Assembly: GCA_945834475.1 (NCBI GenBank)
Contig: CAMAHK010000002.1
Location: 27,642 to 91,641 of the forward strand
DNA: 64,000 nucleotides
Direction: 5' to 3'
Origin: an uncultured Verrucomicrobiota bacterium
GTDB lineage: Bacteria > Verrucomicrobiota > Kiritimatiellia > RFP12 > UBA1067
How positions within the stretch are numbered: the stretch's first letter is position 1; every line of letters starts with the position of its first letter. The translations under genes were made by a program, and so were the position numbers. The notes below the pieces were generated by a model. The model ran no database searches. It was given only the letters and a program-made list of their open reading frames with translations, and was not told the DNA's origin. This document shows positions 10,684 through 61,106 of the stretch, one piece after another.

Positions 10684-10887
10684 TTACAGTGCTTTCATGG
10701 CGAGTTCGACAAACGGAATCTTGTTGCGCGGATGAACCTCGTACTTTCCCGGAAACTGCGCGTCCAAGAGAAGCTGGAGCTGATGCGGATAGCATGTGTT
10801 CTCGCGGTCCGCGAGTCCATACCCGTAGGTGATCGAATCGCCGATGCACGCAACCTTAAGAGCAGCCGCCAAAAGAACTGAGACCAT
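10684..10887 (-). pseudogene. Remnant of an SGNH/GDSL hydrolase gene (N-terminal 67 aa only)
   Basis: Signal-like N-terminus plus the catalytic block CIGDSITYGYG, then a stop after 67 aa with no room for the rest of the domain before rsmE. Confidence 0.35.
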
Positions 10888-12611: not shown

Positions 12612-12685
12612 TGGAGCGGGCGATGGGAATCGAACCCACGTAAGAAGCTTGGGAAGCTCCTATTCTGCCATTGAATTACGCCCGC
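12612..12685 (-). tRNA. tRNA-Gly (CCC)
   Basis: GCGGGCG acceptor, anticodon loop TTCCCAA, T-loop GGGTTCGATTCCC and an encoded CCA. Confidence 0.8.
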
Positions 12686-12708: not shown

Positions 12709-12800
12709 TGGCGGAGAGAGAGGGATTCGAACCCCCGATACCCTTGCGGGTATGCATGATTTCGAGTCATGTGCATTCAACCAGGCTCTGCCATCTCTCC
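12709..12800 (-). tRNA. tRNA-Ser (CGA)
   Basis: 92 nt with GGAGAGA acceptor, anticodon loop CTCGAAA, long variable arm CATACCCGCAAGGGTATC and an encoded CCA. Confidence 0.8.
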
Positions 12801-15890: not shown

Positions 15891-15905
15891 GGGGAGTCTT
15901 GTCAG

Positions 15906-15933
15906 CGCCGCGGGCGAGACGCACCGCGGTACG
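15906..15933. repeat. Family-A element, intergenic (rluA-family gene to aminotransferase)
   Basis: GCCGCGGGCGAGACGCACCGCGGTACG. Confidence 0.7.
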
Positions 15934-15938
15934 GAGCG

Positions 15939-17138
15939 TCAGGTGAGCATTTTGGCGATGCGCTCGGCGGCGATTTTGATCTTCTCGAGGGAGGTCGCGT
16001 ACGACATGCGCACGAAACCCGCGCCGCATGTGCCGAAAGCCGAGCCCGGCACGACGGCGACGCCGTAGTCCTTCAGGAGCTTCATCGCAAAATCCTCGTC
16101 GCTCATTCCCGTCGAACGGATGTCGCAGAAGATGTAGAACGCGCCCTTCGGCATCACGGTCTTGAGCCCCATCGCATTCAATGCCGGCACGAGGAAGTCG
16201 CGGCGCTTCTGATATTCACGACGCATCCGCTCGACGTCCGTGTCGCCGAAGTCCATTGCCTCGACACCGGCGGCCTGCGCAAGCGTCGGGGCGGACATGA
16301 TGCCGTACTGATGGATCTTCATCATCGCGTCGATGACGTCCGCCGGCCCACAGGCGTAGCCGAGACGGTACCCCGTCATCGCCCAGCTCTTCGAGAAGCC
16401 GTTGAGGAGAATGACGCGGTCACGATGTTCCGGGAAGGCGGAGAAGCTGGGGAGAAAATGCTGTTCATCGCCGCGGCCGAGGACGGCTCGCGGTACGGTA
16501 TAGTTCAGCTCGCTATAGACCTCATCGGCCAGGATCAGGAGATCATGCCGCTCCGCAAAGGCGAGAATCTCGGCCATGTCGGCGCGGCTCAAGACGGCAC
16601 CTGTCGGATTGCACGGAAAGTTGAGGAGCATCGCCTTCGTCTTCGGCGTCACCTTCGCCTCGAGCGCGGCGACCGTCAGGCGGAACTCATCCTCAGCCCG
16701 CGTCTCGACGCAAACCGGTACGGCGTGCGCCAGCCGGATCGTCGGCGCATAGGAGACAAAGCACGGCTCATGGTAGAGGATCTCGTCACCTGGCGAGCAG
16801 ATCGCTCGGATCGCGAGGTCGATCGCCTCCGAGACACCCACCGTGACGAGCACTTCCTTCGTCCAGTCGAAGGACGAGCCAAAGCGCCGCGTCAGATAGC
16901 GGCAGATCGCCTGACGCAGATCGGGTGTGCCGAGGTTGGACGTGTAATGCGTACCGCCATTCTCCAGGCACGTCACCGCTGCACGCGAAATGTGCCAAGG
17001 CGTGTCGAAGTCCGGTTCGCCGACACCAAGCGACACCGTATCCTTCGACTGCGCAACGATGTCGAAGAACTTGCGAATGCCACTCTTCGGCAGTTCGGCC
17101 ACATGCGGCGCAACGCGCGATCTCTTCTCCATTGCCAT
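15939..17138 (-). CDS. Class I/II PLP-dependent aminotransferase (aspartate aminotransferase-like)
   Basis: SKSWAMTGYRLGY lysine motif. Contains an in-frame repeat. Confidence 0.75.
   Translation of the reverse strand: MAMEKRSRVAPHVAELPKSGIRKFFDIVAQSKDTVSLGVGEPDFDTPWHISRAAVTCLENGGTHYTSNLGTPDLRQAICRYLTRRFGSSFDWTKEVLVTVGVSEAIDLAIRAICSPGDEILYHEPCFVSYAPTIRLAHAVPVCVETRAEDEFRLTVAALEAKVTPKTKAMLLNFPCNPTGAVLSRADMAEILAFAERHDLLILADEVYSELNYTVPRAVLGRGDEQHFLPSFSAFPEHRDRVILLNGFSKSWAMTGYRLGYACGPADVIDAMMKIHQYGIMSAPTLAQAAGVEAMDFGDTDVERMRREYQKRRDFLVPALNAMGLKTVMPKGAFYIFCDIRSTGMSDEDFAMKLLKDYGVAVVPGSAFGTCGAGFVRMSYATSLEKIKIAAERIAKMLT
16469..16498. repeat. Family-B element, in frame in the aminotransferase gene
   Basis: CGCCGCGGCCGAGGACGGCTCGCGGTACGG. 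Confidence 0.7.
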
Positions 17139-30793: not shown

Positions 30794-30833
30794 CCGTACC
30801 GCGAGCCGTCCTCGGCCGCGGCGGGTAAAAGCC
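30794..30833. repeat. Family-B element filling the zinc-ribbon/nuclease intergenic spacer
   Basis: CCGTACCGCGAGCCGTCCTCGGCCGCGGCGGGTAAAAGCC then AAAATG. Near-identical to the rsmE copy, including the GGGTAAAAGC tail. Confidence 0.7.
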
Positions 30834-32651: not shown

Positions 32652-32726
32652 CCGAGTACATGTTGCGGTGCGACGAAATTTTTGTTAAAATGTGCTTATC
32701 ATCTCTTCAAGGGGAGAAATCATACT

Positions 32727-35700
32727 ATGAAAACATTGAAAATTGTCGTCAGTTCGTTGGCAATCGGCGCACTGTGTCATGCGCTGCCAGCTGCCGATGT
32801 CATCAGTCTCAACTTCGGTTCCGGCAACGGAGCGGTCGGGAATACCACCGCATACGGCATCGTTCCGGCGACCAATTGGTTCAATCTAGCTGCTGCAGGC
32901 AACACCCGTACCGACATCACCTCGATGAACGGCCGATTGCTCGGGAATCTCGTTTGGAATTGCAAAAATACATATCAATATACTGACGGCATTACCGACA
33001 ACGCTCTCAAGGGCTACCTCGATGACGGCGACAGCGGCAACGTCATCACGATTGCCTTGACCGGTATTCCCTTCGAGTACTACCGGGTAATCGTCTACCA
33101 GGCGACCGACACGCCGAATGCGCAGTTCAACCCGCCCTCGCTCAACGGGGTTTTCTATTCGTATGACGGCGGCAAGAAGTCGATGGTGCGCAACAATACT
33201 TTTCTCAAATACGGCAGCTCGCGAAATGCCACGGCCGTGGTCGGCACCAATGTTGCCGAATATCAGCGCGTCTTCAGCGGCGACATGACTATTCTTGGCG
33301 GCGGCAGCATCAATAATAATGGAGTGCGTGGATGCATCGCCGCCGTGCAGATTGTCGAGGCTGATAGCTATACTGCCACGCTGACGGGCGATAGCGATTT
33401 CAATAACTTGACCTGGTCGCCCGAAAAGCCGGCTGATGGCTTTGCCGCTGGATCGGTTTTGAAGGTAAATTATGCAGGCGATACGCCCGTTACATTGAAG
33501 GCGAACGGCGATTATTCCGGCTTGGGACTCGCAATTTCCGGACCGATTGCGCTTAAAACTACGACTCGTATCAAGACGGCTTGCGTTTCGTTCGACAACG
33601 GAGCCTCGCTTGATCTTTCGGCGATGGCGATTGACGAAACGGCCAAGGCTGCCGTGCGCGGCGTGCCGGCGGCGACGGACTTCATTCTCGGCGAGTTGGA
33701 CGCCGCGTCGGTTTCGGTAACGCTCCCGACGGTGGAGGCTGGCTACAACGTCGCGCTCGATACGGTTACCGGCTTTGGTACGCGTCTCGTGGTGACAGCC
33801 CCCAACAGTGCCGAATTCCGTTCGGTCAACTTCAACTTCTCGCGCACGTTCGACAATGCGGAATTGACCGATGGCGCGAGGTATGGTCTCCATCAAGTCG
33901 CCAAGGAAAACTGGAAAGTCGTCGAGACCAACGGCGAAGGCAAGGTGGTCGCGACTGTGTCGAACGGCGTGACGCTGACCCCGACCATCACGAACCTGGC
34001 GCTCGACACATCCGACATGGGCGTTGGCCTGTTCGACGGCGCCGTCAACGACAACCCCAATAACGACGAGTCGACCGCCACGTACGGGTTTACGCTTTCA
34101 GGCATCAATACGGCCGTGGGCGGGAAGTACCGCGTCATCGTCAACATGATTTCGAATCAGGGCAATGGCTTTTCGCCCGTGTCGATCGGCGGTAAAAAGT
34201 ACCACGGAACCGGCGCAACGGCCGGGGCGACGATGTCGTCCGCCGATGAAGTTCGCTGGGGTACGCTTTCCGCGAATTCCATGGCGACCGAAGGCTTGAA
34301 TACGGTAGTTTCAGACGTTCTGACCGCAGACTCAGTGACGGTCGAGACCTGCCGCAATTACACTCAATACGGCGCGCGTGCTAGCATTTGCGCCTTGCAA
34401 GTCGTCGAAGTCGGCGAGCTTGCGCATTTCGAGGCGGTTGCTTTCACCGCCAATTTGACGGGCGATGCGACGTGGGGCGCGAAGACCGGCTTGTCGGATC
34501 CGAGCGCGGAATGGAAGAATGGCGCTGACAATACTATTACGCTCACCAATACCGCGAGCGCGGCGGAGATTACCCTGACGATCGACTCGTCGATCGTCGC
34601 TAAGTCGTTCAAGATCGTCTCCCCGGCCGGACATCGCGTGTTGATTGCGCGTACCAACGGCGCAACCATCGACGTCGATTCGCTCGATTTTGTCGAAGCT
34701 CCCAGTTTCGTTGTCTACACCAATCCGGTGTCGGCGCTCGCGTCGGATACGGTAGTCAACCGCGCTTGGGGCGGCGGCAATGCCGATCCCGAGCAAGCCA
34801 TTGCCATCGAGCACAACGGCGGCGAACTTAATCTCGTCGGCGGCATCTGGAAACTCCAGCAGTCGAATAACGGCACTGCCACGAGCGTTCGGATGGTCGA
34901 CGCTTCAGTTGCCTACACCGACGTGCTGGGCATCGGCACGGCGAGCTACTACCTTGGCGGCACGACGGCAGTGACCACGCCGAGCCTCGTGATCTCGCAA
35001 GGCGCGGCCGGGCGCACCGCTTTACTCGAACTCGCCGACTCTTCTTCCGTAACGGTAACTGGCAATACCTCCGCCGACCAGAACACTTCTTCGGTCATGT
35101 TCGGTCACTGGAACGGACCCGGCACATTCACCATCAAGGACAGCGCCGCCTTCACCGCGCCGGGCGATGTGCTGGTGGGTCTGACTAGCAATCGACAGAC
35201 GATTAATATCGAGGGCGGCACTTTCACGGCACGGGGCATAAAGCTTTCTGTGAACGCTACTGGTACGAATATCCTTAATTTCAACGGCGGCGTTTTGGCG
35301 CTTGGAGAGACTGGTATCGGTACCTATTCGGCGCAACGCACGATGCAAATTAACATCAGCAATTCGCCGGAACTGCGCGCGACGGCGGCGACGCTGCCGA
35401 TTGCCGAGCCGGTAAATATCGCCGCCGGCGCTACGCTGAATTTGACCAAAGCCGAAGGCGTCGAAGCAGCGACCGTCACGATGTCCGCCGCCGTGACCGG
35501 CGAAGGCGCCATCAACGTCGGCGCAGGTGTTACGCTCAAGCTCGTGGGCGCGGCGATGGAGGGTACGCTCGGCTCGGTTGAAGGTGGTCTCACCTTCGTT
35601 GCTTCTGCGGCGCAGCTCGTCGATGGTGTCATCACGATGGCGACGACGCAGGACAACTATGACGGGGCGACGATCACCGTCGTCAATGAAGCCGGCGAGG

Positions 35701-37169
35701 TTGTCGAGCACACGGCGGCGGTTGCCCACGGCGTGTTGACGCTCACGCTCTCGGTCAACAGTTTTGTCGATGCGAACACGTCGACGGCCGAGTGGGACTC
35801 GGGAATGACGGGCTATGTCACCGTCAAGAACACGGGCGATGAAGCGACGACGCTCACCATCAGCACGATCCCGTCTGGCGTCACCGCGATCAATGTGTTC
35901 GGCAAGGTCGACATCGTCTTCACCGAAGATGCGGTGGCGTGCGGGGTTCCGGTGCAACTCCAGTCGGGTGCCGAGGTCACGGCGTCCGGCGCGGTAAAGA
36001 ATCCGATGACTGTTCCGGCGGGTACGACGCTCACGGTGGCGGGCGAAACTTCGTCCGTTGACGCGCTCGTTTCCGTTTCGGGTGGTGAAGTTGTCATCGA
36101 CGGTACGGTGACGGCCAATGCGCGTATCGTGATTCCGAACGGTTCGACGCTTACGGTGAAGCCGGGCGCGACGCTCAATCTGACGTTGAACGAGCAGTTC
36201 AGCGCTGTGGCGGGTAATGCCGTGAACGGAACCTACAATATTTACGGCACGCTCAATCTCGGTTCGTCGCGCCTTAACATGAACAATGCGCACGATACCT
36301 GCTGGTTGAATCTCTATGCGGGCTCGATCATGACCGGTACGGATGAAGCGTGGTTCAACATGACGGGCGGCTGGGATCCGTGGATCTACATCAAGGCCTT
36401 CCCTGAAGCCGTGAACCAGTTTGTCACGTTTGACGTCCACTACGGTCATGGAGATTACAACGCGAACCCGAAGTGGAAGATGGAGAACGGCTCGGGCGTC
36501 GGACTCAAGATCCTGAAGACGACGAACAACTCCGAGACGCTCATCAAGGACACGACGAATGTCGGAGGCCTCGAACTTGCGGGCAACGTGAAGGTGCAGA
36601 TGCCTGAGGCCGAGCGCGGACTCCGCGGTGCGGTTGTGATCGGTGCGGGTACGAAAGTCACGCTGACGCGGAACGACTCGATCAGCTACGATCAGAATCC
36701 GAAGACGACGCTTGATATCGCCGGCATCCTCGATTGCGGCGCGTTCCGTCAGACGCTCTTCGAGGACAACACGATCACGCTGCGCGATGGCGGTCAGATC
36801 ACGGGTGCGGGCGCTGATTACAACAGCGAATACACGGCGGCGCTTGACGTGTGCCGTGCGCTGACGATCAAGGTCGCTGGGACGGCGACGATTGCGGGTC
36901 CGGTGGCGCAGCGTAATGCTGAGAGCGTCATCACGATCGCGCCGGTCGATGCCGAGATGAAGGGGACGCTCGTCCTTTCCAATCCGATCATCCGGTCGTC
37001 GCACATCGACCTTCAGCCGGGGGCGAAGGTTCAGCTGCCGTCGACGGTTAATGCGTCGAAGGTCATTACCACGGCGCGCGGCAAGATGATTGTTGCGAAG
37101 CCTGCGGCGACGGAAGGACAGACAATCTATCGCACGGCCAACAAGTCGTTTACCTTCATCATCCAGTAA
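32727..37169 (+). CDS. Giant secreted repetitive protein (1480 aa; beta-helix or autotransporter-associated beta-strand-repeat-like), function unknown
   Basis: GGGGAG Shine-Dalgarno sequence 10 nt upstream and a signal peptide MKTLKIVVSSLAIGALCHALPA. Sequence is Gly/Thr/Asn/Val-rich with degenerate repeats. No PEP-CTERM or autotransporter barrel was recognised. Confidence 0.6.
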   Translation: MKTLKIVVSSLAIGALCHALPAADVISLNFGSGNGAVGNTTAYGIVPATNWFNLAAAGNTRTDITSMNGRLLGNLVWNCKNTYQYTDGITDNALKGYLDDGDSGNVITIALTGIPFEYYRVIVYQATDTPNAQFNPPSLNGVFYSYDGGKKSMVRNNTFLKYGSSRNATAVVGTNVAEYQRVFSGDMTILGGGSINNNGVRGCIAAVQIVEADSYTATLTGDSDFNNLTWSPEKPADGFAAGSVLKVNYAGDTPVTLKANGDYSGLGLAISGPIALKTTTRIKTACVSFDNGASLDLSAMAIDETAKAAVRGVPAATDFILGELDAASVSVTLPTVEAGYNVALDTVTGFGTRLVVTAPNSAEFRSVNFNFSRTFDNAELTDGARYGLHQVAKENWKVVETNGEGKVVATVSNGVTLTPTITNLALDTSDMGVGLFDGAVNDNPNNDESTATYGFTLSGINTAVGGKYRVIVNMISNQGNGFSPVSIGGKKYHGTGATAGATMSSADEVRWGTLSANSMATEGLNTVVSDVLTADSVTVETCRNYTQYGARASICALQVVEVGELAHFEAVAFTANLTGDATWGAKTGLSDPSAEWKNGADNTITLTNTASAAEITLTIDSSIVAKSFKIVSPAGHRVLIARTNGATIDVDSLDFVEAPSFVVYTNPVSALASDTVVNRAWGGGNADPEQAIAIEHNGGELNLVGGIWKLQQSNNGTATSVRMVDASVAYTDVLGIGTASYYLGGTTAVTTPSLVISQGAAGRTALLELADSSSVTVTGNTSADQNTSSVMFGHWNGPGTFTIKDSAAFTAPGDVLVGLTSNRQTINIEGGTFTARGIKLSVNATGTNILNFNGGVLALGETGIGTYSAQRTMQINISNSPELRATAATLPIAEPVNIAAGATLNLTKAEGVEAATVTMSAAVTGEGAINVGAGVTLKLVGAAMEGTLGSVEGGLTFVASAAQLVDGVITMATTQDNYDGATITVVNEAGEVVEHTAAVAHGVLTLTLSVNSFVDANTSTAEWDSGMTGYVTVKNTGDEATTLTISTIPSGVTAINVFGKVDIVFTEDAVACGVPVQLQSGAEVTASGAVKNPMTVPAGTTLTVAGETSSVDALVSVSGGEVVIDGTVTANARIVIPNGSTLTVKPGATLNLTLNEQFSAVAGNAVNGTYNIYGTLNLGSSRLNMNNAHDTCWLNLYAGSIMTGTDEAWFNMTGGWDPWIYIKAFPEAVNQFVTFDVHYGHGDYNANPKWKMENGSGVGLKILKTTNNSETLIKDTTNVGGLELAGNVKVQMPEAERGLRGAVVIGAGTKVTLTRNDSISYDQNPKTTLDIAGILDCGAFRQTLFEDNTITLRDGGQITGAGADYNSEYTAALDVCRALTIKVAGTATIAGPVAQRNAESVITIAPVDAEMKGTLVLSNPIIRSSHIDLQPGAKVQLPSTVNASKVITTARGKMIVAKPAATEGQTIYRTANKSFTFIIQ

Positions 37170-37172
37170 GGC

Positions 37173-37203
37173 GGTACCGCGGGCGAGGGCGCCTCGCGGT
37201 ACG
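37173..37203. repeat. Intergenic palindromic element (CGTACCGCG...CGCGGTACC type) directly after the giant gene stop
   Basis: GGTACCGCGGGCGAGGGCGCCTCGCGGTACG. It shares termini with the intragenic family and could act as a terminator hairpin. Confidence 0.6.
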
Positions 37204-37333
37204 ATAAACGCGCGGGGGATCGAAAGGTCCTCCGCGTTGCTTTATGGTCGATATTGCCGTGGGCTTTGATCGCGATGTTGTTGCATTAACTTTGTCAATC
37301 GACCCCAACAAGACGAACTCCTGCATTGGGTGC

Positions 37334-44451: not shown

Positions 44452-45453
44452 TTAGCGTATGAGCGTCTTTAGGTACGGGACGGCGTGGGCGAAGAACCGC
44501 TGCCAGCCGACGTCCAGTGTGCCACGGTTGCGGGGACAGTCCGGGAACTGCCGCTTGCGCAGGCCGAAATTCGCGTAGACCGGCGAGTCGAGGAGTTCCT
44601 CCCACGTGTGCGTCATCACGTTGCCGAGCTTCAGCTCGGGTATGACGTGGAAGTCGCACGGATAGACATCGCCGTTGCGCTCGACCACAAGATAGTTGCG
44701 GCAGTCGGACGCGAAATTGCACATCGTCGGCACGCCGCGCACGAGCTGCGAGACGACGGAATCAAAAAGCCGCACACTCACCGTGTGCTCGTCGCCCTCC
44801 TTGCGCCACTCGTCGAAGAGCCGGCAGAGGAACTCACCCCACTGCTCTCCCGTGATCGCATACGGCTTCGGATCCGTGCACTCGATGTACTGGTGCCACT
44901 TGCACCCGAGCTCGTCGCGGATGTAATGGTACAGCGCCTCCGGCTCATGCACGTTCTCGGCCGTAATGAGCTGGAGCACGTTGACCGGCGTCCCGGCGGC
45001 GACCAGCGTGCGGTACCCGGCAAGGCCGGACTCCGTATCGCGGTGCGTCTCGCCCGCGGCACTCTCCAAGCCGCCTTTACCCGCTGCGGGCGAGACGCAC
45101 CGCGGTACGGAGCGCCGCCAGTGCGGACTCACACCAACGAGCCAGTCCTTTTCCGCGAAAAACGCCGCCAGTGACTCCGTCACCAGCGTCGCGTTGGTCT
45201 GCACGGAGAAGTCGATGCCGTCGCCCAGCTTGGCCGCACGACGGAAGAAGCGCTCGCCCATGATAAGCGGCTCGCCGCCCTGGAAGGCGACGGTGTGCTG
45301 CGCAATCGGCAGCGCCCGGTAGGAGGTCAGCATCCGCTCCAGCACCGCGTCGGACATCGGCGCGACCTCACCGTGTCCTCGGTAGAAGCAGTAGGGACAC
45401 GCGAGATTGCAGGCCGAACCCGCGGGCTTGACGAGGAGCGAGAACTCGCGCAT
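44452..45453 (-). CDS. Radical-SAM/SPASM maturase (anaerobic sulfatase-maturating-enzyme-like)
   Basis: CNLACPYC cluster near the N-terminus and a Cys-rich SPASM region. Contains an 76-bp inverted-pair repeat in frame. Confidence 0.6.
   Translation of the reverse strand: MREFSLLVKPAGSACNLACPYCFYRGHGEVAPMSDAVLERMLTSYRALPIAQHTVAFQGGEPLIMGERFFRRAAKLGDGIDFSVQTNATLVTESLAAFFAEKDWLVGVSPHWRRSVPRCVSPAAGKGGLESAAGETHRDTESGLAGYRTLVAAGTPVNVLQLITAENVHEPEALYHYIRDELGCKWHQYIECTDPKPYAITGEQWGEFLCRLFDEWRKEGDEHTVSVRLFDSVVSQLVRGVPTMCNFASDCRNYLVVERNGDVYPCDFHVIPELKLGNVMTHTWEELLDSPVYANFGLRKRQFPDCPRNRGTLDVGWQRFFAHAVPYLKTLIR
45034..45109. repeat. Family-A composite: two inverted copies with 22-bp spacer, in frame in the anSME-like gene
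   Basis: CGTATCGCGGTGCGTCTCGCCCGCGGC ... GCTGCGGGCGAGACGCACCGCGGTACG. The terminal inverted repeats read CTCCGTA(c/t)CGCGG. Confidence 0.75.
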
Positions 45454-45457
45454 CGCG

Positions 45458-47113
45458 TCAGGCCAGGCCGTTCTGCGCGGCAATGAGATTGTCGGCGCCG
45501 TAGATCTTGCGGAGCTTCGGCTTTTCGATCTTGCCGGTCGGGTTGCGCGGCACCTCCGCGAAGATGACCGTCTTCGGACGCTTGTAGCGCGGCAAGTCGG
45601 TGCAGAACGCGTTGACCTCGTCCTCCGTGAGCGTCATCCCGTCTTTCACTGAGATGATCGCCGCGGTGCGCTCGCCGAGACGCGCGTCGGGAAGGCCGAT
45701 GACCGCGACGTCCTTCACCGCGGGATGCGCCCGCAGGAAGTCCTCGATCTGCACGGGATAGATGTTCTCACCGCCCGAGATGATGACGTCCTTCGCGCGG
45801 TCGACGAGATAGATGAACCCGTCGCGCTCCTCGGCCATGTCGCCTGTCAGGAGCCAGCCGCCTTCCTTCAAAATCGCCTGGGTCGCCTCGTGATTGTGAT
45901 AGTACTCCTTCATCACGCCGGGGCCCTTGATCGCGAGCTCGCCGACCTCGCCCTTCGCGACCGGCGTCACGCCGTCCGGTCCGACGATCTTCGCCTCCCA
46001 GCCGAAGCCAGGAACGCCGATCGCGCCGACGTGGTCCGTGTTCTCGATGCCGAGATGCACCGCGCCCGGACCCGTCGACTCGGAAAGTCCGTAGTTCGTG
46101 TCGTAGTCATGATGCGGAAAGACCGACTTCCAGCGCTTGATCAACGCCGGCGGCACCGGCTGCGCGCCGATGTGCATGAGCCGCCACTGCGCGAGACGGT
46201 ACTCGTCGAGGCGAATCTCGCCGCGGTCGATCGCGTCCAGGATGTCCTGCGCCCATGGAACGAGCAGCCACACGATCGTGCATTTCTCCTCGCTCACGCA
46301 ACGGATAACCCACTCGGGCTTGACGCCCTTCAAGAGCACCGCCTTGCCGCCGACGAGGAAACTGCCGAACCAGTGCATCTTCGCGCCCGTATGATAGAGC
46401 GGCGGGATGCAGAGGAAGACGTCGTCCTTCGTCTGGCCGTGATGCGCCTGCTCGACGCGGCAACTGTGGAGAAGCGCCTTGTGCTGCAGGACGATCGCCT
46501 TCGGAAAACCCGTCGTGCCCGACGAGAAATAAATCGCCGCGTCGTCCTCTGGCTTGTGATGAAAACCCGGATCGGCGGAGGCGGCATAGCGGACGAGGCG
46601 GAAGTAATTCTCCGCGAAGATCGGACAGTCCGTGCCGACGTAGAGCCGCGTCTTCACACGCGGGATGTGGTCGGCGATCTGCTCCATGCGGCCCGTGAAC
46701 TCGGGACCGAACACGATGACGTCGGCGTCGGCGAGTTCGAGACAGTACTTGATCTCGTCCGCCGTGTAACGGAAGTTGAGCGGCACCGCGAGGCACCCCG
46801 CCTTGAGTGCGCCAAAGTAGATCGGCAGCCACTCGAGGCAATTCATCAGTAGGATCGCGACCTTGTCGCCCTTCGTGTAGCCGCGGCTCAGAAGAAAGTT
46901 CGCGAATCGGTTCGCACGGTCGTTGAAGTCGCCCCACGTGATCTCGCTGCGGAACTTGTCCGTCGCCGAACTCACGATCAGCGAGGCCTCGCGCCAGGTC
47001 GCCCTCGCGCCCTCGAGTTCCTGCGGATTGATCTCGACCAGAGCGACGTCGTTCGCCCATTCGTGCGCATTGCGCTCAAGGATCTCGGTGATGTTGTCGA
47101 AGTTCGCGTTCAT
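45458..47113 (-). CDS. AMP-dependent acyl-CoA synthetase/ligase
   Basis: AMP-binding motif SSGTTGFPKA and C-terminal GKIEKPKLR. Confidence 0.75.
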   Translation of the reverse strand: MNANFDNITEILERNAHEWANDVALVEINPQELEGARATWREASLIVSSATDKFRSEITWGDFNDRANRFANFLLSRGYTKGDKVAILLMNCLEWLPIYFGALKAGCLAVPLNFRYTADEIKYCLELADADVIVFGPEFTGRMEQIADHIPRVKTRLYVGTDCPIFAENYFRLVRYAASADPGFHHKPEDDAAIYFSSGTTGFPKAIVLQHKALLHSCRVEQAHHGQTKDDVFLCIPPLYHTGAKMHWFGSFLVGGKAVLLKGVKPEWVIRCVSEEKCTIVWLLVPWAQDILDAIDRGEIRLDEYRLAQWRLMHIGAQPVPPALIKRWKSVFPHHDYDTNYGLSESTGPGAVHLGIENTDHVGAIGVPGFGWEAKIVGPDGVTPVAKGEVGELAIKGPGVMKEYYHNHEATQAILKEGGWLLTGDMAEERDGFIYLVDRAKDVIISGGENIYPVQIEDFLRAHPAVKDVAVIGLPDARLGERTAAIISVKDGMTLTEDEVNAFCTDLPRYKRPKTVIFAEVPRNPTGKIEKPKLRKIYGADNLIAAQNGLA

Positions 47114-48117: not shown

Positions 48118-49347
48118 CTAGCAGAAGACCCGTTCAACGCGATTGCCGAGCGAACAGATGATATCGTAGGCGTGGGTGCCCTTCAGGGCCGCCCAGTCGT
48201 CGGGCGTGATCGAGTCGTTTCCACAGGCGCCGAAGCAGATGACCTCGTCACCGGGCTTCACGTTCGGGACGTCCGTGACGTCGACGGTCGTGTAGTCCAT
48301 CGAGATGCGTCCGACGATCTTGCAGCGCTTGCCGCCGATGAAGACAAAGCCGCGGTTCGTGAGCGCGAGGGGGAGTCCGTCGGCATAGCCCGCCGAAATC
48401 GTCGCGATCGTGCGCGGCTCGGCAAGACACCACGTGCGGCCGTAGCCGAGCGTCGTTCCGGCGGGAAGCTCGCGCACCTGCGCGACGTGCGTCTTCAGCG
48501 TGAGGACGGGCTCCACCTTGAGCGCCTTGCGTCCGTAAGGGTCGAAGGATCCGTGCAGGTTGATGCCCGTGCGCACCTGCGTGAACGGCGCCTTCGCTGT
48601 TTCGGGGAAATTGTTGATCGCGTCCGAGGCCGCCATGTGGACCTTCTTGAAGGAGATGCCCTCCTTCGCACACGCGGCGACGAGCGCCTTGAAGAGCTTG
48701 ATCTGCGTCTTCGTGTACGGGTCCTTCGGCTCGTAGGCCATCGGACAGTGCGAGAAGATGCCTTCGCAGTCGAGGTTCGGAAGCGCGCGCACGGCGCGAA
48801 TCGTCGCGAGGGCCTCGGCAAGGCCCGTCGGTCCCGTCGCGCGGATGCCGAGGCGTCCCATGCCCGAGTCGATCTTGAAATGGACGCGCGCCGTCGTCTT
48901 CGCCCTCACGGCCGCAGCGGAGATCAGCTTCGCGGTCTCGAGGTCGGTGATCGGCAGGATCACGCCCGCCCGAACCATCTCGGGAATCTCGTCGGGGAGG
49001 ATTGAGGAGAGGATTTGGATGGAGGGGATTTGGATGGAGGGGATGTTCTGTTCTGGCGCGACAGGAGTGTCGCGCCCCCTTTGAGCCGTCGCACGCAACG
49101 GGGACGCGACACTCCTGTCGCGTCGTACGAAAACCTTCCTCAACTCCAACGCCTCGTACGGTTCGGCGACGCCGAAGTCGGTGCAGCCCGCCTCGGCGAG
49201 GGCCTTCGCATACGCGGAAACCCCGAGCCCGTAGGCATTCGCCTTTAAAACCGACAAGACCTTCATCGGCGCGACATGCGCGGCGATCTTGCGATAGTTC
49301 CGCACCAGGGCCTGAAGGTCGATTTCAACAGTAACGCGCCTCTTCAC
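48118..49347 (-). CDS. alr: Alanine racemase
   Basis: PLP lysine region VLKANAYGLG. Probable GTG start. Contains a double-hairpin repeat and a 15-bp tandem duplication in frame. Confidence 0.8.
   Translation of the reverse strand: MKRRVTVEIDLQALVRNYRKIAAHVAPMKVLSVLKANAYGLGVSAYAKALAEAGCTDFGVAEPYEALELRKVFVRRDRSVASPLRATAQRGRDTPVAPEQNIPSIQIPSIQILSSILPDEIPEMVRAGVILPITDLETAKLISAAAVRAKTTARVHFKIDSGMGRLGIRATGPTGLAEALATIRAVRALPNLDCEGIFSHCPMAYEPKDPYTKTQIKLFKALVAACAKEGISFKKVHMAASDAINNFPETAKAPFTQVRTGINLHGSFDPYGRKALKVEPVLTLKTHVAQVRELPAGTTLGYGRTWCLAEPRTIATISAGYADGLPLALTNRGFVFIGGKRCKIVGRISMDYTTVDVTDVPNVKPGDEVICFGACGNDSITPDDWAALKGTHAYDIICSLGNRVERVFC
49055..49124. repeat. Family-C double-hairpin element, in frame in alr (15-bp tandem duplication at 49011-49040)
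   Basis: GGCGCGACAGGAGTGTCGCGCC ... GACGCGACACTCCTGTCGCGTC. Confidence 0.75.
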
Positions 49348-55073: not shown

Positions 55074-56420
55074 CTATGCCTTTGAGAGAATGACGAGGGT
55101 CTCGAAGCGTGCTGTTCGCGGGAACATGTTGAACCAGCGCACGGATTCGACCTTATAGCCCTTCGAAATTTCCTTCAAATCGCGCATAAGCGTCGCCGGA
55201 TCGCACGAAACATAGAAGATTCGCGGAGCTTTGGACTGAGCCAGCCAACGCGCGACACCGGGTTCGAGTCCCCCGCGGGGCGGATCAATGACAACGGTCG
55301 TCTTCGGCGTCACCGAGATGCGCTTCAGGTTCCGCCCGACTTCCTCGGCGTAGAAGCGGAACGATGAGGTGGAGGTGGAAGGTTGAGGTGGACAGCGGAA
55401 GATGGCTTCCGCGTTGCGCCGGGCGAAGTCGATTGCCGCACGCCCCGACTCGATGCCGGTGAGGCGCCCTCCGTACCGCGAGCCGTCCTCGGCCGCGGCG
55501 CTGGCACAGCACAGCCCGAACACGCCGACGCCGCAATAGAGGTCGAGAATATCCGGCGCGACAGCCGCGCCCTTCTGGTATTCGGCGACGACCGCCCGGA
55601 CGAGTTCTTCTCCAACCTCGGGATTGACCTGATAGAAGCCGTCGGCCGGCACCTCAAAATCGCGGCCAAGCGTCGTTTCCTTGAGAACAAGGCCCTGCGG
55701 CGCCTTGCCGAGCCACCACTTGACACCCGTCTTCTTCGTCCATCGAATCGTGACGTTCGCCTTCTTCTCCGTCTCGCGACGCACAACCTCCGGACCTGTC
55801 GTCAGCAGCATCAGAATCTGCCGCCGGATCTCAGGCAACTTCGCGTTGATCTCAGGACGCGCCAGAGGATCTGACGCGATGTCGACGATCTCATGCGAGG
55901 GCTCGGTACGATAGCCGATGACGAACGGGGACGCGACACTCCTGTCGCGTCGGGAATCGGAAGAAGCGTCCTTATTCCGGCGAGGCAAGAGTGCCTCGCC
56001 CCCGATTCTCCCGATGTGATAAACGACCTTGTTCCGGTAGTTAAGCTCCATCCCAGCCGACGTACCCGCGCCGCCTCGGCACGAGGCGCTCACCCAGCCG
56101 CTGTCACCCATCCCCACCGAAATCCGCGCCCGCTCGAAGAACTCACGCAGCTGCTGCTCCTTGGCCGCACACTCGCCCTTGTAGGAGAGCGAGGCATAGA
56201 CCATGCCGGGGACAGACCCCTCTTCCTTCACGCGTTCGGGACTCGGCTCGACGATTTCGACGAGCCGGGCCTTGACGAAGCTCTTCTTCTCTTCGACGAT
56301 TTCGGCGCGGACTTGTTCGCCGGCCCAGGCGCCGGGCACGAACACGACGCGCCCGTCGCCCAGACGGCCAAGTCCGTCGCCGCCATAGACGTTCTTTGCG
56401 ATGTAGACCGTCGAGATCAC
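55074..56420 (-). CDS. rlmD: TRAM-domain SAM-dependent RNA (uracil-5)-methyltransferase, RlmD/TrmA family
   Basis: Motifs VIDPPRGGL and FYVSCDPATL. GTG start overlaps the upstream stop. Carries three separate in-frame repeat insertions. Confidence 0.7.
   Translation of the reverse strand: MISTVYIAKNVYGGDGLGRLGDGRVVFVPGAWAGEQVRAEIVEEKKSFVKARLVEIVEPSPERVKEEGSVPGMVYASLSYKGECAAKEQQLREFFERARISVGMGDSGWVSASCRGGAGTSAGMELNYRNKVVYHIGRIGGEALLPRRNKDASSDSRRDRSVASPFVIGYRTEPSHEIVDIASDPLARPEINAKLPEIRRQILMLLTTGPEVVRRETEKKANVTIRWTKKTGVKWWLGKAPQGLVLKETTLGRDFEVPADGFYQVNPEVGEELVRAVVAEYQKGAAVAPDILDLYCGVGVFGLCCASAAAEDGSRYGGRLTGIESGRAAIDFARRNAEAIFRCPPQPSTSTSSFRFYAEEVGRNLKRISVTPKTTVVIDPPRGGLEPGVARWLAQSKAPRIFYVSCDPATLMRDLKEISKGYKVESVRWFNMFPRTARFETLVILSKA
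55471..55500. repeat. Family-B element, in frame in rlmD
   Basis: CCGTACCGCGAGCCGTCCTCGGCCGCGGCG. Confidence 0.7.
55930..56000. repeat. Family-C double-hairpin element, in frame in rlmD
   Basis: GACGCGACACTCCTGTCGCGTC ... GGCGAGGCAAGAGTGCCTCGCC. Confidence 0.75.
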
Positions 56421-58456
56421 TTCGCGAACCTCACGGCAAAACCACCGCCAGGAGCCATGTGAAGCGCAATCTTCTCGCCGGCCGTCACCGTCTTCGTCTC
56501 GCGGACGTAGCTCGTGCCGTTCTTGTCGGCGTCAGGACCGTCGCGGAAGATCTCGGCGTTCCATTTCCCCTCGCCGAGGAAGGAGGTGTCGAGCGTGTAG
56601 TCGCGCGCCTCGATCGTCGTCAGGCCGGCGGCGTACCAGGAGCCGTCGGTCGCCTGACGCGCAGCGGCGACCATCGAGTCGGGACAGCCGTCCAGGCCGA
56701 CCGTCTTCTGCCACACGACCGGCGTCGCGGACATGAACGCGAACGACTCGTCATTCTTCTCGTAGTTCGTCGGCGAGTCACAGAGCATCTGGAGCGGCGC
56801 CTCGTAAAGCGACATCATCGCGATCTGACGGCAACGCGTACCGACCGAACCGGGCGTCATGCCCGCAGTCTCGCCGCGATAGCCGGCGCCGACGGCGTGG
56901 TTCAGCATCGCGCCCGGCGTGTAGTCCATCGGACCCGCCGTGAGGCGCAGATAGAACGCCGCGACATCATTGAACATCATTTCGCGCTCGGCGACCTCGC
57001 CGCCGGGGAACCACTTCATTTGCTCGAGACCGTGAATGCCCTCATAGTTGACGACGTTCGGATAGCGGCGCTGGAGACCGTTCGGACGGTACGCGCCGTG
57101 GTAGTCGACCAGCATCTTCTCCTTCGCGCACGCCGCGGCGAACTTCTCGAGGAAGCCCGCGACGACCGCGTCGCCGCGGTCCATGAAGTCGACCTTGAAG
57201 CCCTTCGCGCCGAGCTTGGCGAAGTGCGCGGCGACCTTCTCCTCCTCGCCGTAGACCTGCGCCCACGCCATCCAGAGGATGATGCCGACGCCCTTCTGAT
57301 TCGCATAGTTGATAAGGTGCGGCACGTCCACTTCCGGATGGAACTTCCAGATATTCAGCGTCTCGCTCCAGCCCTCGTCAAAGATGACGTACTCGACGCC
57401 CTTCGCCGCAGCAAAGTCGATGAAGTGCTCATAGGTCTTCGTCGTGCAACCGCCGTTCGGCGAGCCCTTCGGCGCATTGTCAAAGCAGTTCCACCAGTCC
57501 CAGGCGACCTTGCCCGGCTTCACCCACGAGTAGTCGGCACCCGCGTCCGCCGCCGGGGCGAGCGCGTAGACGATGTCGGCCTCGCAGAACTTGACGGGAC
57601 GGTCCGCCAGGACGAACGTGCGCCACGGGAACGTGCGCGTGCCCGCCGTCTTCGCGAGATAGTCCTCATGCGCCGTAATCTTCACCCAGCGCCCGCCGGT
57701 CGTCACAATATCCTTGCCCCAGCCGCCGACGCGCTGCGTCGCCTTCGGCGCACCCTCGAACTTCGCCGTGAATAGGGCTGAACCCTCGTCCTTCGTCAAG
57801 TTCCAGATCGGATAGTCACGCACGTCGGACTCCGTCACCGCCACGCACTTGCCGCCGACCGAATAGGCGAACGGCAGGTAGACCATGCCGTTCCCGCGCC
57901 AGGACGACTTCCCGTCCGAAACCGTCTTGAGTGCGCCGACCGTCGTCGAGACGGGAACGGACTCCTCCTGGCCGAAACCACCCGTGAAGTTCGCCCAGCA
58001 CTTCGCCGCGACATCCGGCACGACAAGATCGGCCTTCTCGCAGTTGACGATGATCTCGCCGCCCTTCTTCGTCTCAAAGCGATACGCGACGCCATCATTG
58101 CGCGCCACAAGCCGCACGCCCCAGTCGCCCCAGTCGGCGAACGTTTCCGTCCCCGCGAGATCGACGGACGCCTTCTTGTAGACCGGCGTCGCAACCGTTC
58201 CCGAAAGCGCCTTCTTTTCCGTCGCCTTCGGCTCACCCGCGTCCTTGACGAGGCACTTCCCATCGACCTTGAGGCCGATCTCGGACTTCGCCACGACGAC
58301 CACGCCGTCACGCAGCACCTCGTAGGCGAGCGGCGCCGTATAGAGGCGAATCTCGTTCTTGCCATCCGGCGAAACCGCCACAATCGGCTTCTTCGCAAAC
58401 CACGAGGAGCAACCCGCCAAGGCCACGCCCACCATCGTCATCATCAGTCTTTTCAT
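56417..58456 (-). CDS. Glycoside hydrolase lipoprotein (GH97-like alpha-glucosidase/galactosidase)
   Basis: Lipobox VALAGCSS and a central TIM-barrel segment WVKPGKVAWDWW...VIFDEGWS. Confidence 0.5.
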   Translation of the reverse strand: MKRLMMTMVGVALAGCSSWFAKKPIVAVSPDGKNEIRLYTAPLAYEVLRDGVVVVAKSEIGLKVDGKCLVKDAGEPKATEKKALSGTVATPVYKKASVDLAGTETFADWGDWGVRLVARNDGVAYRFETKKGGEIIVNCEKADLVVPDVAAKCWANFTGGFGQEESVPVSTTVGALKTVSDGKSSWRGNGMVYLPFAYSVGGKCVAVTESDVRDYPIWNLTKDEGSALFTAKFEGAPKATQRVGGWGKDIVTTGGRWVKITAHEDYLAKTAGTRTFPWRTFVLADRPVKFCEADIVYALAPAADAGADYSWVKPGKVAWDWWNCFDNAPKGSPNGGCTTKTYEHFIDFAAAKGVEYVIFDEGWSETLNIWKFHPEVDVPHLINYANQKGVGIILWMAWAQVYGEEEKVAAHFAKLGAKGFKVDFMDRGDAVVAGFLEKFAAACAKEKMLVDYHGAYRPNGLQRRYPNVVNYEGIHGLEQMKWFPGGEVAEREMMFNDVAAFYLRLTAGPMDYTPGAMLNHAVGAGYRGETAGMTPGSVGTRCRQIAMMSLYEAPLQMLCDSPTNYEKNDESFAFMSATPVVWQKTVGLDGCPDSMVAAARQATDGSWYAAGLTTIEARDYTLDTSFLGEGKWNAEIFRDGPDADKNGTSYVRETKTVTAGEKIALHMAPGGGFAVRFAK

Positions 58457-58578: not shown

Positions 58579-59439
58579 TCAAACCAAAACATTATCGATC
58601 AACCGCGTCTTGCCGTCGTACGCCGCGACGAGCACGCAGCATCCCTTGCCGATCTTCTTGCGCGTCTCGAGCGTCTCGGCATCAACGCATTCGACATAGT
58701 CGACCTTAAGTCCCGCCTTCGTCAAATCACGCTTAAGCTGCGCAATTCCGTACCGCGGAGCGTCCTCGCCCGCGGCGTCTCCAAGACCGCTCTTTCGCGC
58801 AGCGCCGGCCAGCTTCCTGAGTCCCCCCGAAATCGCGAGCGCCTTCGCCTTCTCCTCGGCGGAGAGGTACGTGTTGCGGCTCGAGCGGGCGAGGCCCGAC
58901 GGCTCGCGCACGATCGGCGCGACGACGATCTCGAGGTCGAAGTTGAGATCGCGCACCATGCGCTTGATGATCTGCGCCTGCTGGTAGTCCTTCTGACCGA
59001 AGACCGCGAAGTCGGCGTGAGCGAGATTGAAGAGCTTCGCGACGACCGTGCAGACGCCGCGGAAGTGCCCGGGACGCCGCGCGCCGCAGAGGCCCTTCGA
59101 GAGGTCCTCCTCGTTCACATAGACCGAGTGACGCTCAAGGTACATGTTCGTCGGCGTCGGGAAGAAGATTGCCGTCGCGCCCGCGGCCTTGCACTTCGCA
59201 AGGTCGGCCTTCTCGTCGCGCGGATACTTCTCGTAATCCTCGCCCGGACAGAACTGCACGGGATTGACGAACACCGAGACGATGATCTCGTCCGCCCCCT
59301 TCGCCTTCGCCTTCGCGATCAGCGAGAGATGTCCCTCATGCAAGTACCCCATCGTCGGCACGAGCGCAATCTTCTTGCCCGCCTTCGACTGGGCCTTCGC
59401 CCACTTCTGCAACTTCTTCGGTTCACGAAAAATTTTCAT
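58579..59439 (-). CDS. panC: Pantoate--beta-alanine ligase
   Basis: ALVPTMGYLHEGHLSL HIGH motif. ATG at 59437-59439, preceded by a TGGTATAAT box. Contains an in-frame repeat. Confidence 0.85.
   Translation of the reverse strand: MKIFREPKKLQKWAKAQSKAGKKIALVPTMGYLHEGHLSLIAKAKAKGADEIIVSVFVNPVQFCPGEDYEKYPRDEKADLAKCKAAGATAIFFPTPTNMYLERHSVYVNEEDLSKGLCGARRPGHFRGVCTVVAKLFNLAHADFAVFGQKDYQQAQIIKRMVRDLNFDLEIVVAPIVREPSGLARSSRNTYLSAEEKAKALAISGGLRKLAGAARKSGLGDAAGEDAPRYGIAQLKRDLTKAGLKVDYVECVDAETLETRKKIGKGCCVLVAAYDGKTRLIDNVLV
58749..58777. repeat. Family-A' element, in frame in panC
   Basis: CGTACCGCGGAGCGTCCTCGCCCGCGGCG. Confidence 0.7.
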
Positions 59440-59581
59440 AGTGAGTATTATTATACCATAAATGACCAAGCCCAGGCCTTCAGCCGAATCGGGTCGACGC
59501 ACGAAATGAGGACCGTCGACAAATTGTTGATAAGGCCTCTATAACTGTCGATAGGCCACAAACCGTGCGGGGAGCGGATTT

Positions 59582-59590
59582 TGTTATAAT
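59582..59590 (+). promoter_or_regulatory. Extended -10 (TGTTATAAT) seven nt upstream of the dnaB ATG
   Basis: TTGTTATAATcttgcccATG, with no room for a Shine-Dalgarno sequence. Confidence 0.45.
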
Positions 59591-59597
59591 CTTGCCC

Positions 59598-61106
59598 ATG
59601 AACGATTTGAAGACACCTCCCAGCAACGTCGAGGCCGAACGGGCCGTGCTGGGTACGATTTTGCTCGATACCGCGAGCCGCAACGGCGACCGCGTGATGG
59701 ACACGTGCCTATCGAGCGGACTGACCGAAGAAAGCTTTTTCGATCCCCGCAACCGCACGATCTACGCGACGATGCTGACGATGAACCGTCAGTCGAAGCC
59801 GCTGGACATCCTGACGCTCACCGAAGAGCTGAACGTTACCGCAAAGATGGAGGCGATCGGCGGCATCGGCTACCTGCAGGGCGTCATCGACCAGGTACCG
59901 ACCGCCGCGCACGCCGAGCACTACATCTCGATCGTCAAGGCGAAGCAGCTGCGCCGCACACTGATCGAGCGCTCGACGAAGGTCATCGAGAAGTGCTACG
60001 ATGAGGAGAAGAACCCCGACCCAGGCGCCCTCCTCGGCGAGGCGGAGAAGTCCTTCCTCGAAATCGGCGGACAGGACAACAAGACGATGAGCTGGAGCGC
60101 GGCGGTTGAGGACAGCCTCAGACGCCTCGACAAGATGTTTGAGTCCGGCGGCAAGAAGATGGAAGGCCTTTCCACCGGTCTTCGTCATCTCGACGAAAAG
60201 CTTCAGGGCCTCAAGCCCGCCGAAATGATTGTCATCGCCGCGCGTCCGTCCGTCGGCAAGACCTCGCTCGCGATGAACATCGCCGAGTCGGCCGCGCTCG
60301 GACAGATGCTGACGCTCAAGAACGGCATGTACCCGCCGGTCGAGTCCGACGGCGGCAAGATGCATCCCGTCGGCATCTTCTCGCTCGAGATGCCCGTCGA
60401 GGCACTCACGAAGCGTATGGTCTCGGGACGCGCCCACGTCAACATGTGGCGCGTCGCCCGGAACCTCGTCCCGAAGAGCGAGAAGGAAATGCTCACGCAG
60501 AACATCTTCCACGCGGCGGATGAACTCCGGCGTGCGCCGATCTTCGTGGACGACACGGCCGGTCTGGACGTGATGGACCTCCGTGCCCGTGCGCGCCGCA
60601 TGCACAAGCAGCACAAGATCGAGCTCATCGTCATCGACTACCTCCAGCTCTGCACCTGCCGCGAAGCCGCGCGCATGGGCTCGCGCCAGATTGAGGTGTC
60701 GATGATTTCCCAACAAATCAAGGCGATGGCCAAGGAACTGAAGATCCCGGTGATCGTTCTCTCCCAGCTCTCGCGTGCGAACGAACAGCGCGGCGACAAA
60801 GAAGAGAAGCCGAAGCTTTCCGACCTCCGCGACTCGGGAGCCATCGAACAGGACGCGGATGTCGTCTTCCTCCTGCGCCGCCCCTCGCGCACGGCGACCT
60901 CGAAGGACTCTGGCGACGAAGCGCTCGCCATCATCGACGTCGCGAAGAACCGCAACGGAGAAATCGGCGAGGTAAAGACGAACTTCATCCGCGAGTACAC
61001 GCGTTTCGAGGACCGTCCGCTTGAGGCGACCGAGCCCGGCGAGAACTTCCAGTCCTCCGAACCCGAACCGCCGCCGCAACAGTTCGTACAGGACGTCTTC
61101 TCGTAA
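59598..61106 (+). CDS. dnaB: Replicative DNA helicase
   Basis: Walker A GKTS and a RecA-like C-terminal domain. ATG at 59598. Confidence 0.9.
   Translation: MNDLKTPPSNVEAERAVLGTILLDTASRNGDRVMDTCLSSGLTEESFFDPRNRTIYATMLTMNRQSKPLDILTLTEELNVTAKMEAIGGIGYLQGVIDQVPTAAHAEHYISIVKAKQLRRTLIERSTKVIEKCYDEEKNPDPGALLGEAEKSFLEIGGQDNKTMSWSAAVEDSLRRLDKMFESGGKKMEGLSTGLRHLDEKLQGLKPAEMIVIAARPSVGKTSLAMNIAESAALGQMLTLKNGMYPPVESDGGKMHPVGIFSLEMPVEALTKRMVSGRAHVNMWRVARNLVPKSEKEMLTQNIFHAADELRRAPIFVDDTAGLDVMDLRARARRMHKQHKIELIVIDYLQLCTCREAARMGSRQIEVSMISQQIKAMAKELKIPVIVLSQLSRANEQRGDKEEKPKLSDLRDSGAIEQDADVVFLLRRPSRTATSKDSGDEALAIIDVAKNRNGEIGEVKTNFIREYTRFEDRPLEATEPGENFQSSEPEPPPQQFVQDVFS

Follow-up and report, generated by a model that had tools for sequence, protein, structure and literature searches.

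The 64,000-nt stretch of contig CAMAHK010000002.1 analyzed here (hereinafter, the window) belongs to an uncultured bacterium of a gut/rumen Kiritimatiellia lineage and contains a gene for a radical-SAM/SPASM protein similar to the anaerobic sulfatase-maturating enzyme (anSME), in which a palindromic element lies in frame. This element is probably a tail-to-tail pair of repetitive extragenic palindrome (REP)-type units, similar to a bacterial interspersed mosaic element (BIME) or a REP doublet forming a hairpin (REPIN), which was inserted in frame and is tolerated by the host protein. The units belong to a family designated F1. The initial annotation had described the element as part of a dispersed mobile family and, more specifically, as a miniature inverted-repeat transposable element (MITE) with terminal inverted repeats; a recently mobile repeat family located in frame was indeed found, whereas the MITE structure was not retained, the arms being autonomous hairpin units.

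A repeat search confirmed the inverted repeat, with arms of 37 nt (45024–45060 and 45083–45119) that were 86% complementary and separated by 22 nt. Within these arms, near-perfect core arms of 30 nt each were identified, namely, CTCCGTAtCGCGGTGCGTCTCGCCCGCGGC (45031–45060) and GCtGCGGGCGAGACGCACCGCGGTACGGAG (45083–45112), as had been reported initially together with the 22-bp spacer. The length of the palindrome was 82 nt when its CTC/GAG ends were counted and 76 nt within the limits drawn originally. The inverted repeat was far beyond chance, since the 27-mer arm had five matches with no more than 3 mismatches in the window, compared with 0.00 expected from shuffled sequences. Folding of the 116-nt region gave −79.2 kcal/mol for RNA (z = −5.7) and −50.6 kcal/mol for DNA (z = −7.9), and the pair was able to form a 30-bp RNA duplex according to the fold prediction.

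Both arms constitute complete REP-type units, each having a head, a hairpin, and a tail. The F1 unit is ~40 nt in size and consists of an unpaired (C)CGTAC head, a bulged hairpin, a GCG foot, and a tail. According to the folds, the hairpin of every unit was an 8–9-bp GC-rich stem-loop with one bulge, in which CCGCG(G) and (C)CGCGG were paired around the bulge, followed by an inner stem of 3–5 bp and a TCT or TCCT loop, with GCG after the stem; each arm on its own reached −13.5 to −18.5 kcal/mol, its head remaining unpaired. In 19 units, the head positions C2, G3, T4, and A5 were invariant and C6 was nearly so. Stem cells were paired in 96.7% of cases, versus 30–58% when the partner was slid. 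The inner stem pair was GC in nine and CG in six sequences, and a CG to UA double change was found in a dxr unit; three hairpin subtypes (A/A′, B, and C) differed by compensatory changes. Tails measured 9–10 nt and resembled either TCTCCAAG or GGTAA(A/C)AGC. The flanks of different units were unrelated to each other, and the hairpin cores were free of stop codons in all six frames. The F1 units are referred to as REP-type because this anatomy matches the published anatomy of REPs, namely, an imperfect hairpin with a bulge and, at its foot, a conserved 5′ tetranucleotide (PMC3479197), whereas two inverted REPs constitute a BIME or REPIN (PMC3116915). By analogy, we infer that the CGTAC head would be equivalent in recognition to the GTAG head of classical REPs. 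It should be noted that the common termini ascribed earlier to repeat families A and B of the window were confirmed as a shared CGTACCGCG head. A relation of the repeats to restriction sites was also considered and dropped, CCGCGG occurring 59 times in the window with 60 occurrences expected.

Comparison of the tails of all units showed that the spacer of the radical-SAM (rSAM) pair is made up of two adjoining tails, one from the left unit (TCTCCAAG type) and the other from the right unit (the reverse complement of GGGTAAAGGC); the tails are of the TCTCCAAG and GGTAAAGGC types. The spacer and architecture of this pair were found nowhere else in ~110 kb of sequence of the lineage, except at the orthologous locus in contig L002. 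Such a restriction to one locus and its ortholog would be expected from a local inverted duplication unique to the rSAM gene, e.g., a quasi-palindrome produced by template switching during replication and unrelated to any mobile family. This explanation is hardly credible, since both arms matched other units of the window with 0–1 mismatches, other genes contained the same units, and the tails of the two arms differed and matched the two tail types of singlets, which a simple inverted duplication would not yield.

The open reading frame (ORF) of the host gene extends from 44452 to 45483 on the minus strand, with TTG at 45483; the likely start is ATG at 45453, because all homologues begin with MREFSLL. 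As claimed in the initial annotation, the ORF reads through the element without a stop codon, encoding ...RRSVPRCVSPAAGKGGLESAAGETHRDTESG..., and the peptides spanning the junctions include ...HWRRSVPR... and ...THRDTESGLAGYR.... The protein has the Pfam domains Radical_SAM (residues 23–112) and SPASM (residues 262–316), carries the radical-SAM CX3CX2C core, and is similar to the solved anSME (PDB 4K37, E = 5 × 10−36 over residues 13–301); its TIGR03942 equivalog score was 206.7 bits, under the cutoff of 349.45. Judging from these sequence comparisons, the protein is best called anSME-like. The repeat-encoded insert comprised 27 residues (approximately 124–150 of the 343-aa ORF) and left the CX3CX2C and SPASM cysteine motifs unaffected. 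When its position was checked relative to the SPASM domain, the insert was found outside it, ~110 residues upstream, in the radical-SAM core region and, in the alignment with PDB 4K37, at the position of the ‘DGPKEIHN...’ segment of canonical anSME. In the AlphaFold2 model built from 22 homologues (mean predicted local distance difference test score, pLDDT, of 82.4), residues 124–148 were the sole internal segment with pLDDT below 50; this segment coincided with the repeat-encoded stretch and was located between strand 115–118 and helix 143–162. The pair is thus predicted by the model to add a disordered 27-residue loop between a core beta-strand and the next helix of the radical-SAM domain.

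A head search of the window revealed 17 intact F1 units, and one more unit was split by a 48-nt insertion, giving 18 in total (Table 1). Fifteen of the 18 units were in frame inside Pfam-verified genes, namely, those for RseP (1), Dxr (2), RsmE (2), RecD2 (1), an aminotransferase (1), FtsK (4), the rSAM protein (2), an RlmD-like methyltransferase (1), and PanC (1), and the three intergenic units stood directly after stop codons. Since the coding fraction of the window was ~0.90 by a crude estimate, this placement is near the expectation for random insertion. Among the units, at least five reading frames and both orientations were represented, and the units sit, in a translation-compatible manner, in variable or disordered loops of housekeeping proteins; the loop occupied by the Dxr pair is ~12–13 residues shorter in solved structures, and the PanC unit alters the length by only ~6 residues relative to the solved structure. 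Four B-type units were identical to each other, and the rseP (5843–5875) and intergenic (15904–15936) copies were 100% identical over 33 nt; such identical copies show that the units were amplified recently. The FtsK cluster consisted of a C-type unit enclosed by two others whose complementarity reached 100% over 29 nt, and the three units were jointly translated as a proline/alanine-rich linker segment. The 1495-aa ORF at 32682–37169, which is followed by an F1 unit after its stop codon, had no Pfam match.

Table 1. Positions of the F1 and F2 repeat units in the window and of the host radical-SAM gene
Feature	Position	Strand	Remarks
rSAM pair, left arm: F1 A-type REP-like unit	45031–45060	+	head at left (CTC-CGTAt-CCGCGG...); antisense to host gene; translated SAAGETHRDTE
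rSAM pair, spacer	45061–45082	.	22 nt, ACTCTCCAAGCC followed by GCCTTTACCC; arms tail-to-tail
rSAM pair, right arm: F1 A-type REP-like unit	45083–45112	-	head at right; sense orientation of host gene; translated SVPRCVSPAAG
Host gene, anSME-like radical-SAM/SPASM protein	44452–45453	-	333 aa from ATG at 45453 (likely start); ORF to TTG at 45483
rseP, F1 A-type singlet	5845–5874	+	translated SAAGETHRGTE; missing from contig L089
dxr, F1 pair	6847–6919	.	head-to-head, 15 nt between heads; units 6847–6876 (-) and 6890–6919 (+)
rsmE, F1 pair	9950–10075	.	tail-to-tail, spacer 16 nt, arms of different subtypes; B-type 9950–9979 (+); A′-type (-) split by 48-nt insertion 10017–10064
recD2, F1 B-type singlet	13869–13898	+	intragenic
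Intergenic F1 A-type singlet	15905–15934	-	between aminotransferase and RluA-like gene
Aminotransferase, F1 B-type singlet	16469–16498	-	93 nt more beside it in L092 and L093, giving a two-arm unit (tail-to-tail, spacer about 70 nt)
FtsK linker, F1 three-unit cluster	27096–27207	.	27096–27125 (-), 27134–27163 (+, C-type), 27178–27207 (+); head-to-head pair with third unit nested between arms
ftsK, F1 C-type singlet	28817–28846	+	near 3′ end of gene
Intergenic F1 B-type singlet	30794–30823	+	immediately after stop codon; 14 nt before next ATG
Intergenic F1 variant singlet	37175–37204	-	just past stop codon of 1495-aa gene
rlmD-like methyltransferase, F1 B-type singlet	55471–55500	+	intragenic
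panC, F1 A′-type singlet	58748–58777	+	translated DAAGEDAPRYG
F2 pair, RsmE	10434–10501
F2 pair, RecD2	14262–14329
F2 pair, RluA-like synthase	15368–15444
F2 pair, alanine racemase	49050–49126
F2 pair, RlmD-like gene	55927–56005

Four contigs syntenic with the window (L090, L091, L092, and L093; 98.2–99.0% identical to it), which came from assemblies of pig gut and other assemblies, were compared with it, and every indel of at least 6 nt proved to be a gain, loss, or disruption of a unit. In L090 and L091, a complete extra F1 unit was present at the 3′ end of rseP; at the same place, the window (~5007–5024) has 17 nt of partly similar sequence, an apparent F1 remnant. The 48-nt element in rsmE was present in the window and in L093, whereas the 98.8%-identical L092 had an intact second F1 unit. 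This 48-nt element (10017–10064) contains two small hairpins with TTCG loops, lies cleanly and in frame (16 codons) inside the rsmE F1 unit, and occurs as a single copy in the window, while L091 carries a different variant. The intergenic unit upstream of rsmE (~10665–10690) was intact in L091 and L092, and in the window and L093 it was represented by a decayed, shortened remnant. At the aminotransferase locus, L092 and L093 contained a clean 93-nt block (one arm and the spacer) beside the singlet; since the identity-based tree was ((window, L093), L092), it appears most parsimonious that this block was lost from the window, leaving the singlet. No target-site duplication was present at the junctions of the clean 93-nt and 48-nt indels; direct duplications of 2–9 bp, which the initial annotation had proposed to look for at the flanks, were thus absent from every clean indel, and the flanks of the units were unrelated.

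Similar changes were found in less closely related sequences. Contig P0122/L089, which is 91–95% identical to the window and encodes a Dxr protein with 97% identity (95% for DNA), was without the dxr pair (−75 nt) and without the rseP singlet (net −18 nt). The dxr pair is regarded as a gain, because the short loop AGGGAVDK of L089 is common to other lineages. As for the rSAM gene, the 99.4%-identical ortholog in L002 contained the same pair with a perfect head, and the single mismatch in the head of the left arm of the window (T for C at 45038) was absent from this contig. In the 86%-identical ortholog P0002 (L001, 415–470), the same codon was occupied by a single C-type unit, after which TCCGTACCG occurred a second time; either one subtype was replaced by another here, or a hot spot received a separate insertion. 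In orthologs with identity of 79% or less (P0003, P0005, and P0006), the loop was short, ordinary, glycine-rich, and repeat-free, and more distant orthologs had only ~6 residues at the insert site.

The presence of a different subtype at the same codon in P0002 and the fact that filled alleles often replace host sequence are in line with a spread of the units by gene conversion or recombination at pre-existing look-alike sites rather than by transposition. The empty dxr and rseP sites looked slightly similar to the unit, but this microhomology was rejected, since 14% and 36% of random 30-nt windows, respectively, matched the unit equally well, and the 93-nt and 48-nt indels were clean; consequently, such a spread is considered quite unlikely.

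Adjacent F1 pairs within 120 nt were significantly over-represented (5 versus 0.57 expected, P = 6 × 10−5). Together with the inverted, nearly identical arms and the clean 93-nt indel that turns a two-arm form into a singlet, this would suit a MITE, i.e., a non-autonomous transposon of 76–82 bp with terminal inverted repeats that is moved by a DDE transposase and whose single arms are decayed halves. However, the pairs varied in geometry, spacer, and arm subtype (Table 1), no second copy of the rSAM architecture was found in the ~110 kb of the lineage, every arm had its own hairpin, head, and tail, and the junctions were clean and without target-site duplication. A ‘TCCG’ direct repeat at the ends of the rSAM copy was rejected as such a duplication, since its first copy lies in the conserved head, which other units have without a matching downstream repeat. 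Singlets were mutually identical and closer to the consensus of their subtype than paired arms (0.3 and 1.5 mismatches on average, respectively). Neither an insertion sequence (IS) nor a transposase was encoded in the window, and the element had no match in plasmid, phage, and viral-contig collections. Hence, a MITE origin is improbable. The same observations bear on two further claims of the initial annotation. The single-arm copies reported in rseP, in panC, and at 15905–15934 are indeed singlets, whereas the copy in dxr proved to be one of a head-to-head pair (6847–6876/6890–6919); the F1 loci of the window comprised nine singlets versus four clusters, and these single arms are autonomous units and not half-elements. 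Nor can the rSAM copy be taken as close to an ancestral full-length element: because its spacer is unique, geometries vary, and singlets are nearer to the consensus, it exemplifies one route among several by which units become neighbors and is not a template full-length element, and further full-length copies of this architecture were absent from the ~110 kb except for the L002 ortholog.

In a second REP-like family, F2, the head was GGGG and the hairpin was GACGCGACA-CTC-TGTCGCGTC; GCGAGACA and GCGAGGCA occurred as compensatory variants. In the window, F2 comprised ten units in five pairs, occurred only as doublets, and was in frame inside Pfam-verified genes in all ten cases. Four of the five pairs were head-to-head and shared one frame, RRD(K/R)SV..P ... 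RGR(D/G)T..(S/A)P, and the pair in the alanine racemase gene corresponded to an extra segment of ~32 residues relative to the solved structure. The shared F2 frame, together with the capacity of the rSAM pair for a 30-bp RNA duplex and the position of the intergenic copies directly after stop codons, like that of classical REPs, is what would be expected if the repeats were selected functional elements, acting either as signals in RNA or DNA (for mRNA stability, RNase III cleavage, ribosome pausing, or protein binding) or as useful peptide modules. This is unlikely, because no fewer than five frames and both orientations are used in the reading of F1 units, units are present or absent in essential genes of near-identical strains, and the segment encoded in the rSAM gene is predicted to be disordered. 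In addition, the Rfam scan of the element gave only sub-threshold noise and no family match, and the promoter and terminator scan flagged nothing at the element and no terminator-like T-run after it.

Thus, the structure, distribution, and strain-level variation of the units argue for the in-frame insertion of a REP-type pair. As to the mechanism, by analogy with TnpA-REP, a trans-acting HUH/Y1 enzyme, namely, a REP-associated tyrosine transposase (RAYT) or an IS200/IS605-like enzyme, could recognize the head together with the bulged stem and mobilize the units in the form of single-stranded DNA hairpins. Purifying selection would then retain only those insertions that preserve the frame and fall into tolerant loops, and insertion beside, or even within, units already present would give rise to pairs. 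Expression of the rSAM gene could possibly be lowered, or its mRNA destabilized, by the 30-bp RNA duplex that the rSAM pair can form. The RAYT-like mobilization step is put forward tentatively, with somewhat less than even confidence. Several observations weigh against this interpretation. No gene for an HUH/Y1 enzyme or any other transposase was found in the window and related contigs, the head is GTAC and not GTAG, and the extragenic location by which REPs are defined is violated. The filled allele replaces 17–21 nt of host loop sequence at dxr, at both rseP sites, and at the rSAM locus relative to P0006, which precise single-strand ‘peel and paste’ would not predict; this replacement of host loops could be the product of later loop divergence or of imprecise loss. 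The comparison within the lineage covered, moreover, only ~110 kb of sequence.

Compared with the REP, BIME, and REPIN-RAYT systems of Enterobacteria and Pseudomonas, the F1 units are alike in having a short, imperfect, bulged palindrome, lineage-specific hairpins, and a high copy number (PMC3479197, PMC3116915), as well as an unpaired conserved motif 5′ of the hairpin foot, which is GTAG in E. coli and CGTAC here (PMC3479197). Other shared features are inverted pairs able to form long hairpins, the lack of target duplications, and intergenic copies just after stop codons. However, REPs are extragenic by definition, whereas 15 of the 18 F1 units are inside coding sequences; REPIN doublets predominate and are more conserved (PMC3116915), whereas F1 singlets outnumber pairs and are nearer to the consensus; and no RAYT gene was seen in the window. 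The subterminal hairpins of IS200/IS605 elements resemble F1 in combining a hairpin with a 5′ guide or tetranucleotide, recognition of single-stranded DNA by an HUH Y1 enzyme, and the absence of duplication (PMC3479197), but the units described here have no adjacent tnpA or tnpB and are not left-end/right-end pairs flanking cargo. Bacterial MITEs (Correia/CREE, ERIC, Nezha, and Chunjie) are likewise small, non-autonomous, provided with inverted repeats, and occasionally in frame in ORFs (PMC10969869); their terminal inverted repeats match a parent IS and are accompanied by target-site duplications, neither of which was found here, where the supposed terminal repeats are free-standing hairpins. 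With Rickettsia palindromic elements (RPEs), F1 shares the occurrence of in-frame palindromic repeats in unrelated housekeeping genes as tolerated extra peptide segments (PMC10969869). RPEs are set apart by their description as AT-rich elements of ~100–150 bp that have one fixed reading frame for a conserved peptide and reside in the reduced genomes of obligate intracellular bacteria, whereas F1 units are 30–40 nt long, GC-rich, read in many frames, and of REP anatomy, and they occur in gut Kiritimatiellia with 61% GC; homology to RPE families is unlikely because of the GC-rich composition of F1. F1 combines REP-like anatomy with Rickettsia-RPE-like placement in genes.

The exact A/A′-type unit was absent from 185,579 species-representative genomes, among which the host genome is not included; the closest species representative was ~65% identical in the host rSAM protein. 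A broader unit pattern gave three matches in Joint Genome Institute (JGI) metagenomes, one of which (L087) proved genuine, being a B-type unit located past the stop codon of pstB; the other two were discarded as probably due to chance, being located in contigs with 73–75% GC. In 80 ortholog loci from distant Kiritimatiellia and other phyla (1.2 Mb), no family members were found, and the combination of CGTAC and a hairpin was not enriched over control heads, with a detector that is too strict for bulged stems and recovers only two of the window units. In another species (L094, Dxr 76% identical), two tandem CGTAC-headed units with the hairpin GGGGCGCGA-CCT-CGCGCCCC were present in the same Dxr loop. 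CGTAC-headed units of this contig were located at 882–958, 2367–2407, and 2919–2960; besides the tandem units of Dxr, there were copies within RseP, among them a tandem duplication of 21 nt. The combination seen in L094 and the window, a conserved head with hairpins that are species-specific, is typical of REP systems. L094 also contained purine-rich (GGAGAGGACGTGAGACATGAGACGAGAGAC) and CAACAACCA-type repeats (1596–1753, 9378–9433, and 10106–10364), which are unrelated to the hairpin families and are located near gene ends and within a glycosyltransferase gene. In other Kiritimatiellia, Dxr proteins P0129, P0141, P0182, P0205, and P0212 and rSAM protein P0009 had unrelated inserts of 10–35 residues in the same loops, e.g., PVPVPRSLSPCSPVPCPPSP and KEEVWNFKTPYFILHPSSFIL. 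This comparison suggests that, throughout the class, the Dxr and rSAM loops may generally attract insertions or serve as sinks for them. Because of the L094 units and these loop inserts, the phenomenon looks clade-wide, with species-specific hairpins. A literature search yielded no description of such elements in Kiritimatiellia.

A wider hypothesis, which is considered slightly less likely than not, is that CGTAC-headed and GGGG-headed REP-type elements in gut/rumen Kiritimatiellia may have moved from extragenic space into coding loops, nearly without a barrier and genome-wide, through an undescribed HUH enzyme or another mechanism, and that most strain-level indels in essential genes would stem from them, new disordered protein segments being created continually. 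Palindromic repeats that colonize housekeeping genes in frame are known chiefly from Rickettsia, and an RPE-like process would, if this is true, be operating in a free-living, GC-rich bacterium. In the 64-kb stretch, the REP-like family is found in about a fifth of genes and explains every larger indel between near-identical strains. If the same holds genome-wide, the repeats would offer a natural system for studying the tolerance and recruitment of newborn loop segments by proteins, as well as sensitive strain markers; lineage-specific ‘insertions’ in conserved enzymes annotated from metagenome-assembled genomes may be repeat-derived, which would call for caution; and the question of the mobilizing agent and of weak selection against genic insertion would be raised. 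The rSAM locus alone is of moderate interest, whereas REP-like repeats that colonize coding loops and dominate strain-level indels are of higher interest.

Among other features of the window, Rfam at the gathering threshold revealed only three tRNA genes, all on the minus strand (8977–9058, 12615–12685, and 12712–12800). In the GH97 gene (56417–58456) and the DnaB gene (59565–61106), the Pfam spans exceeded the model length by 28–45 residues, with GH97_N covering residues 29–300 (model length 229) and DnaB_C covering residues 201–483 (model length 255); these two genes may contain further unrecognized inserts.

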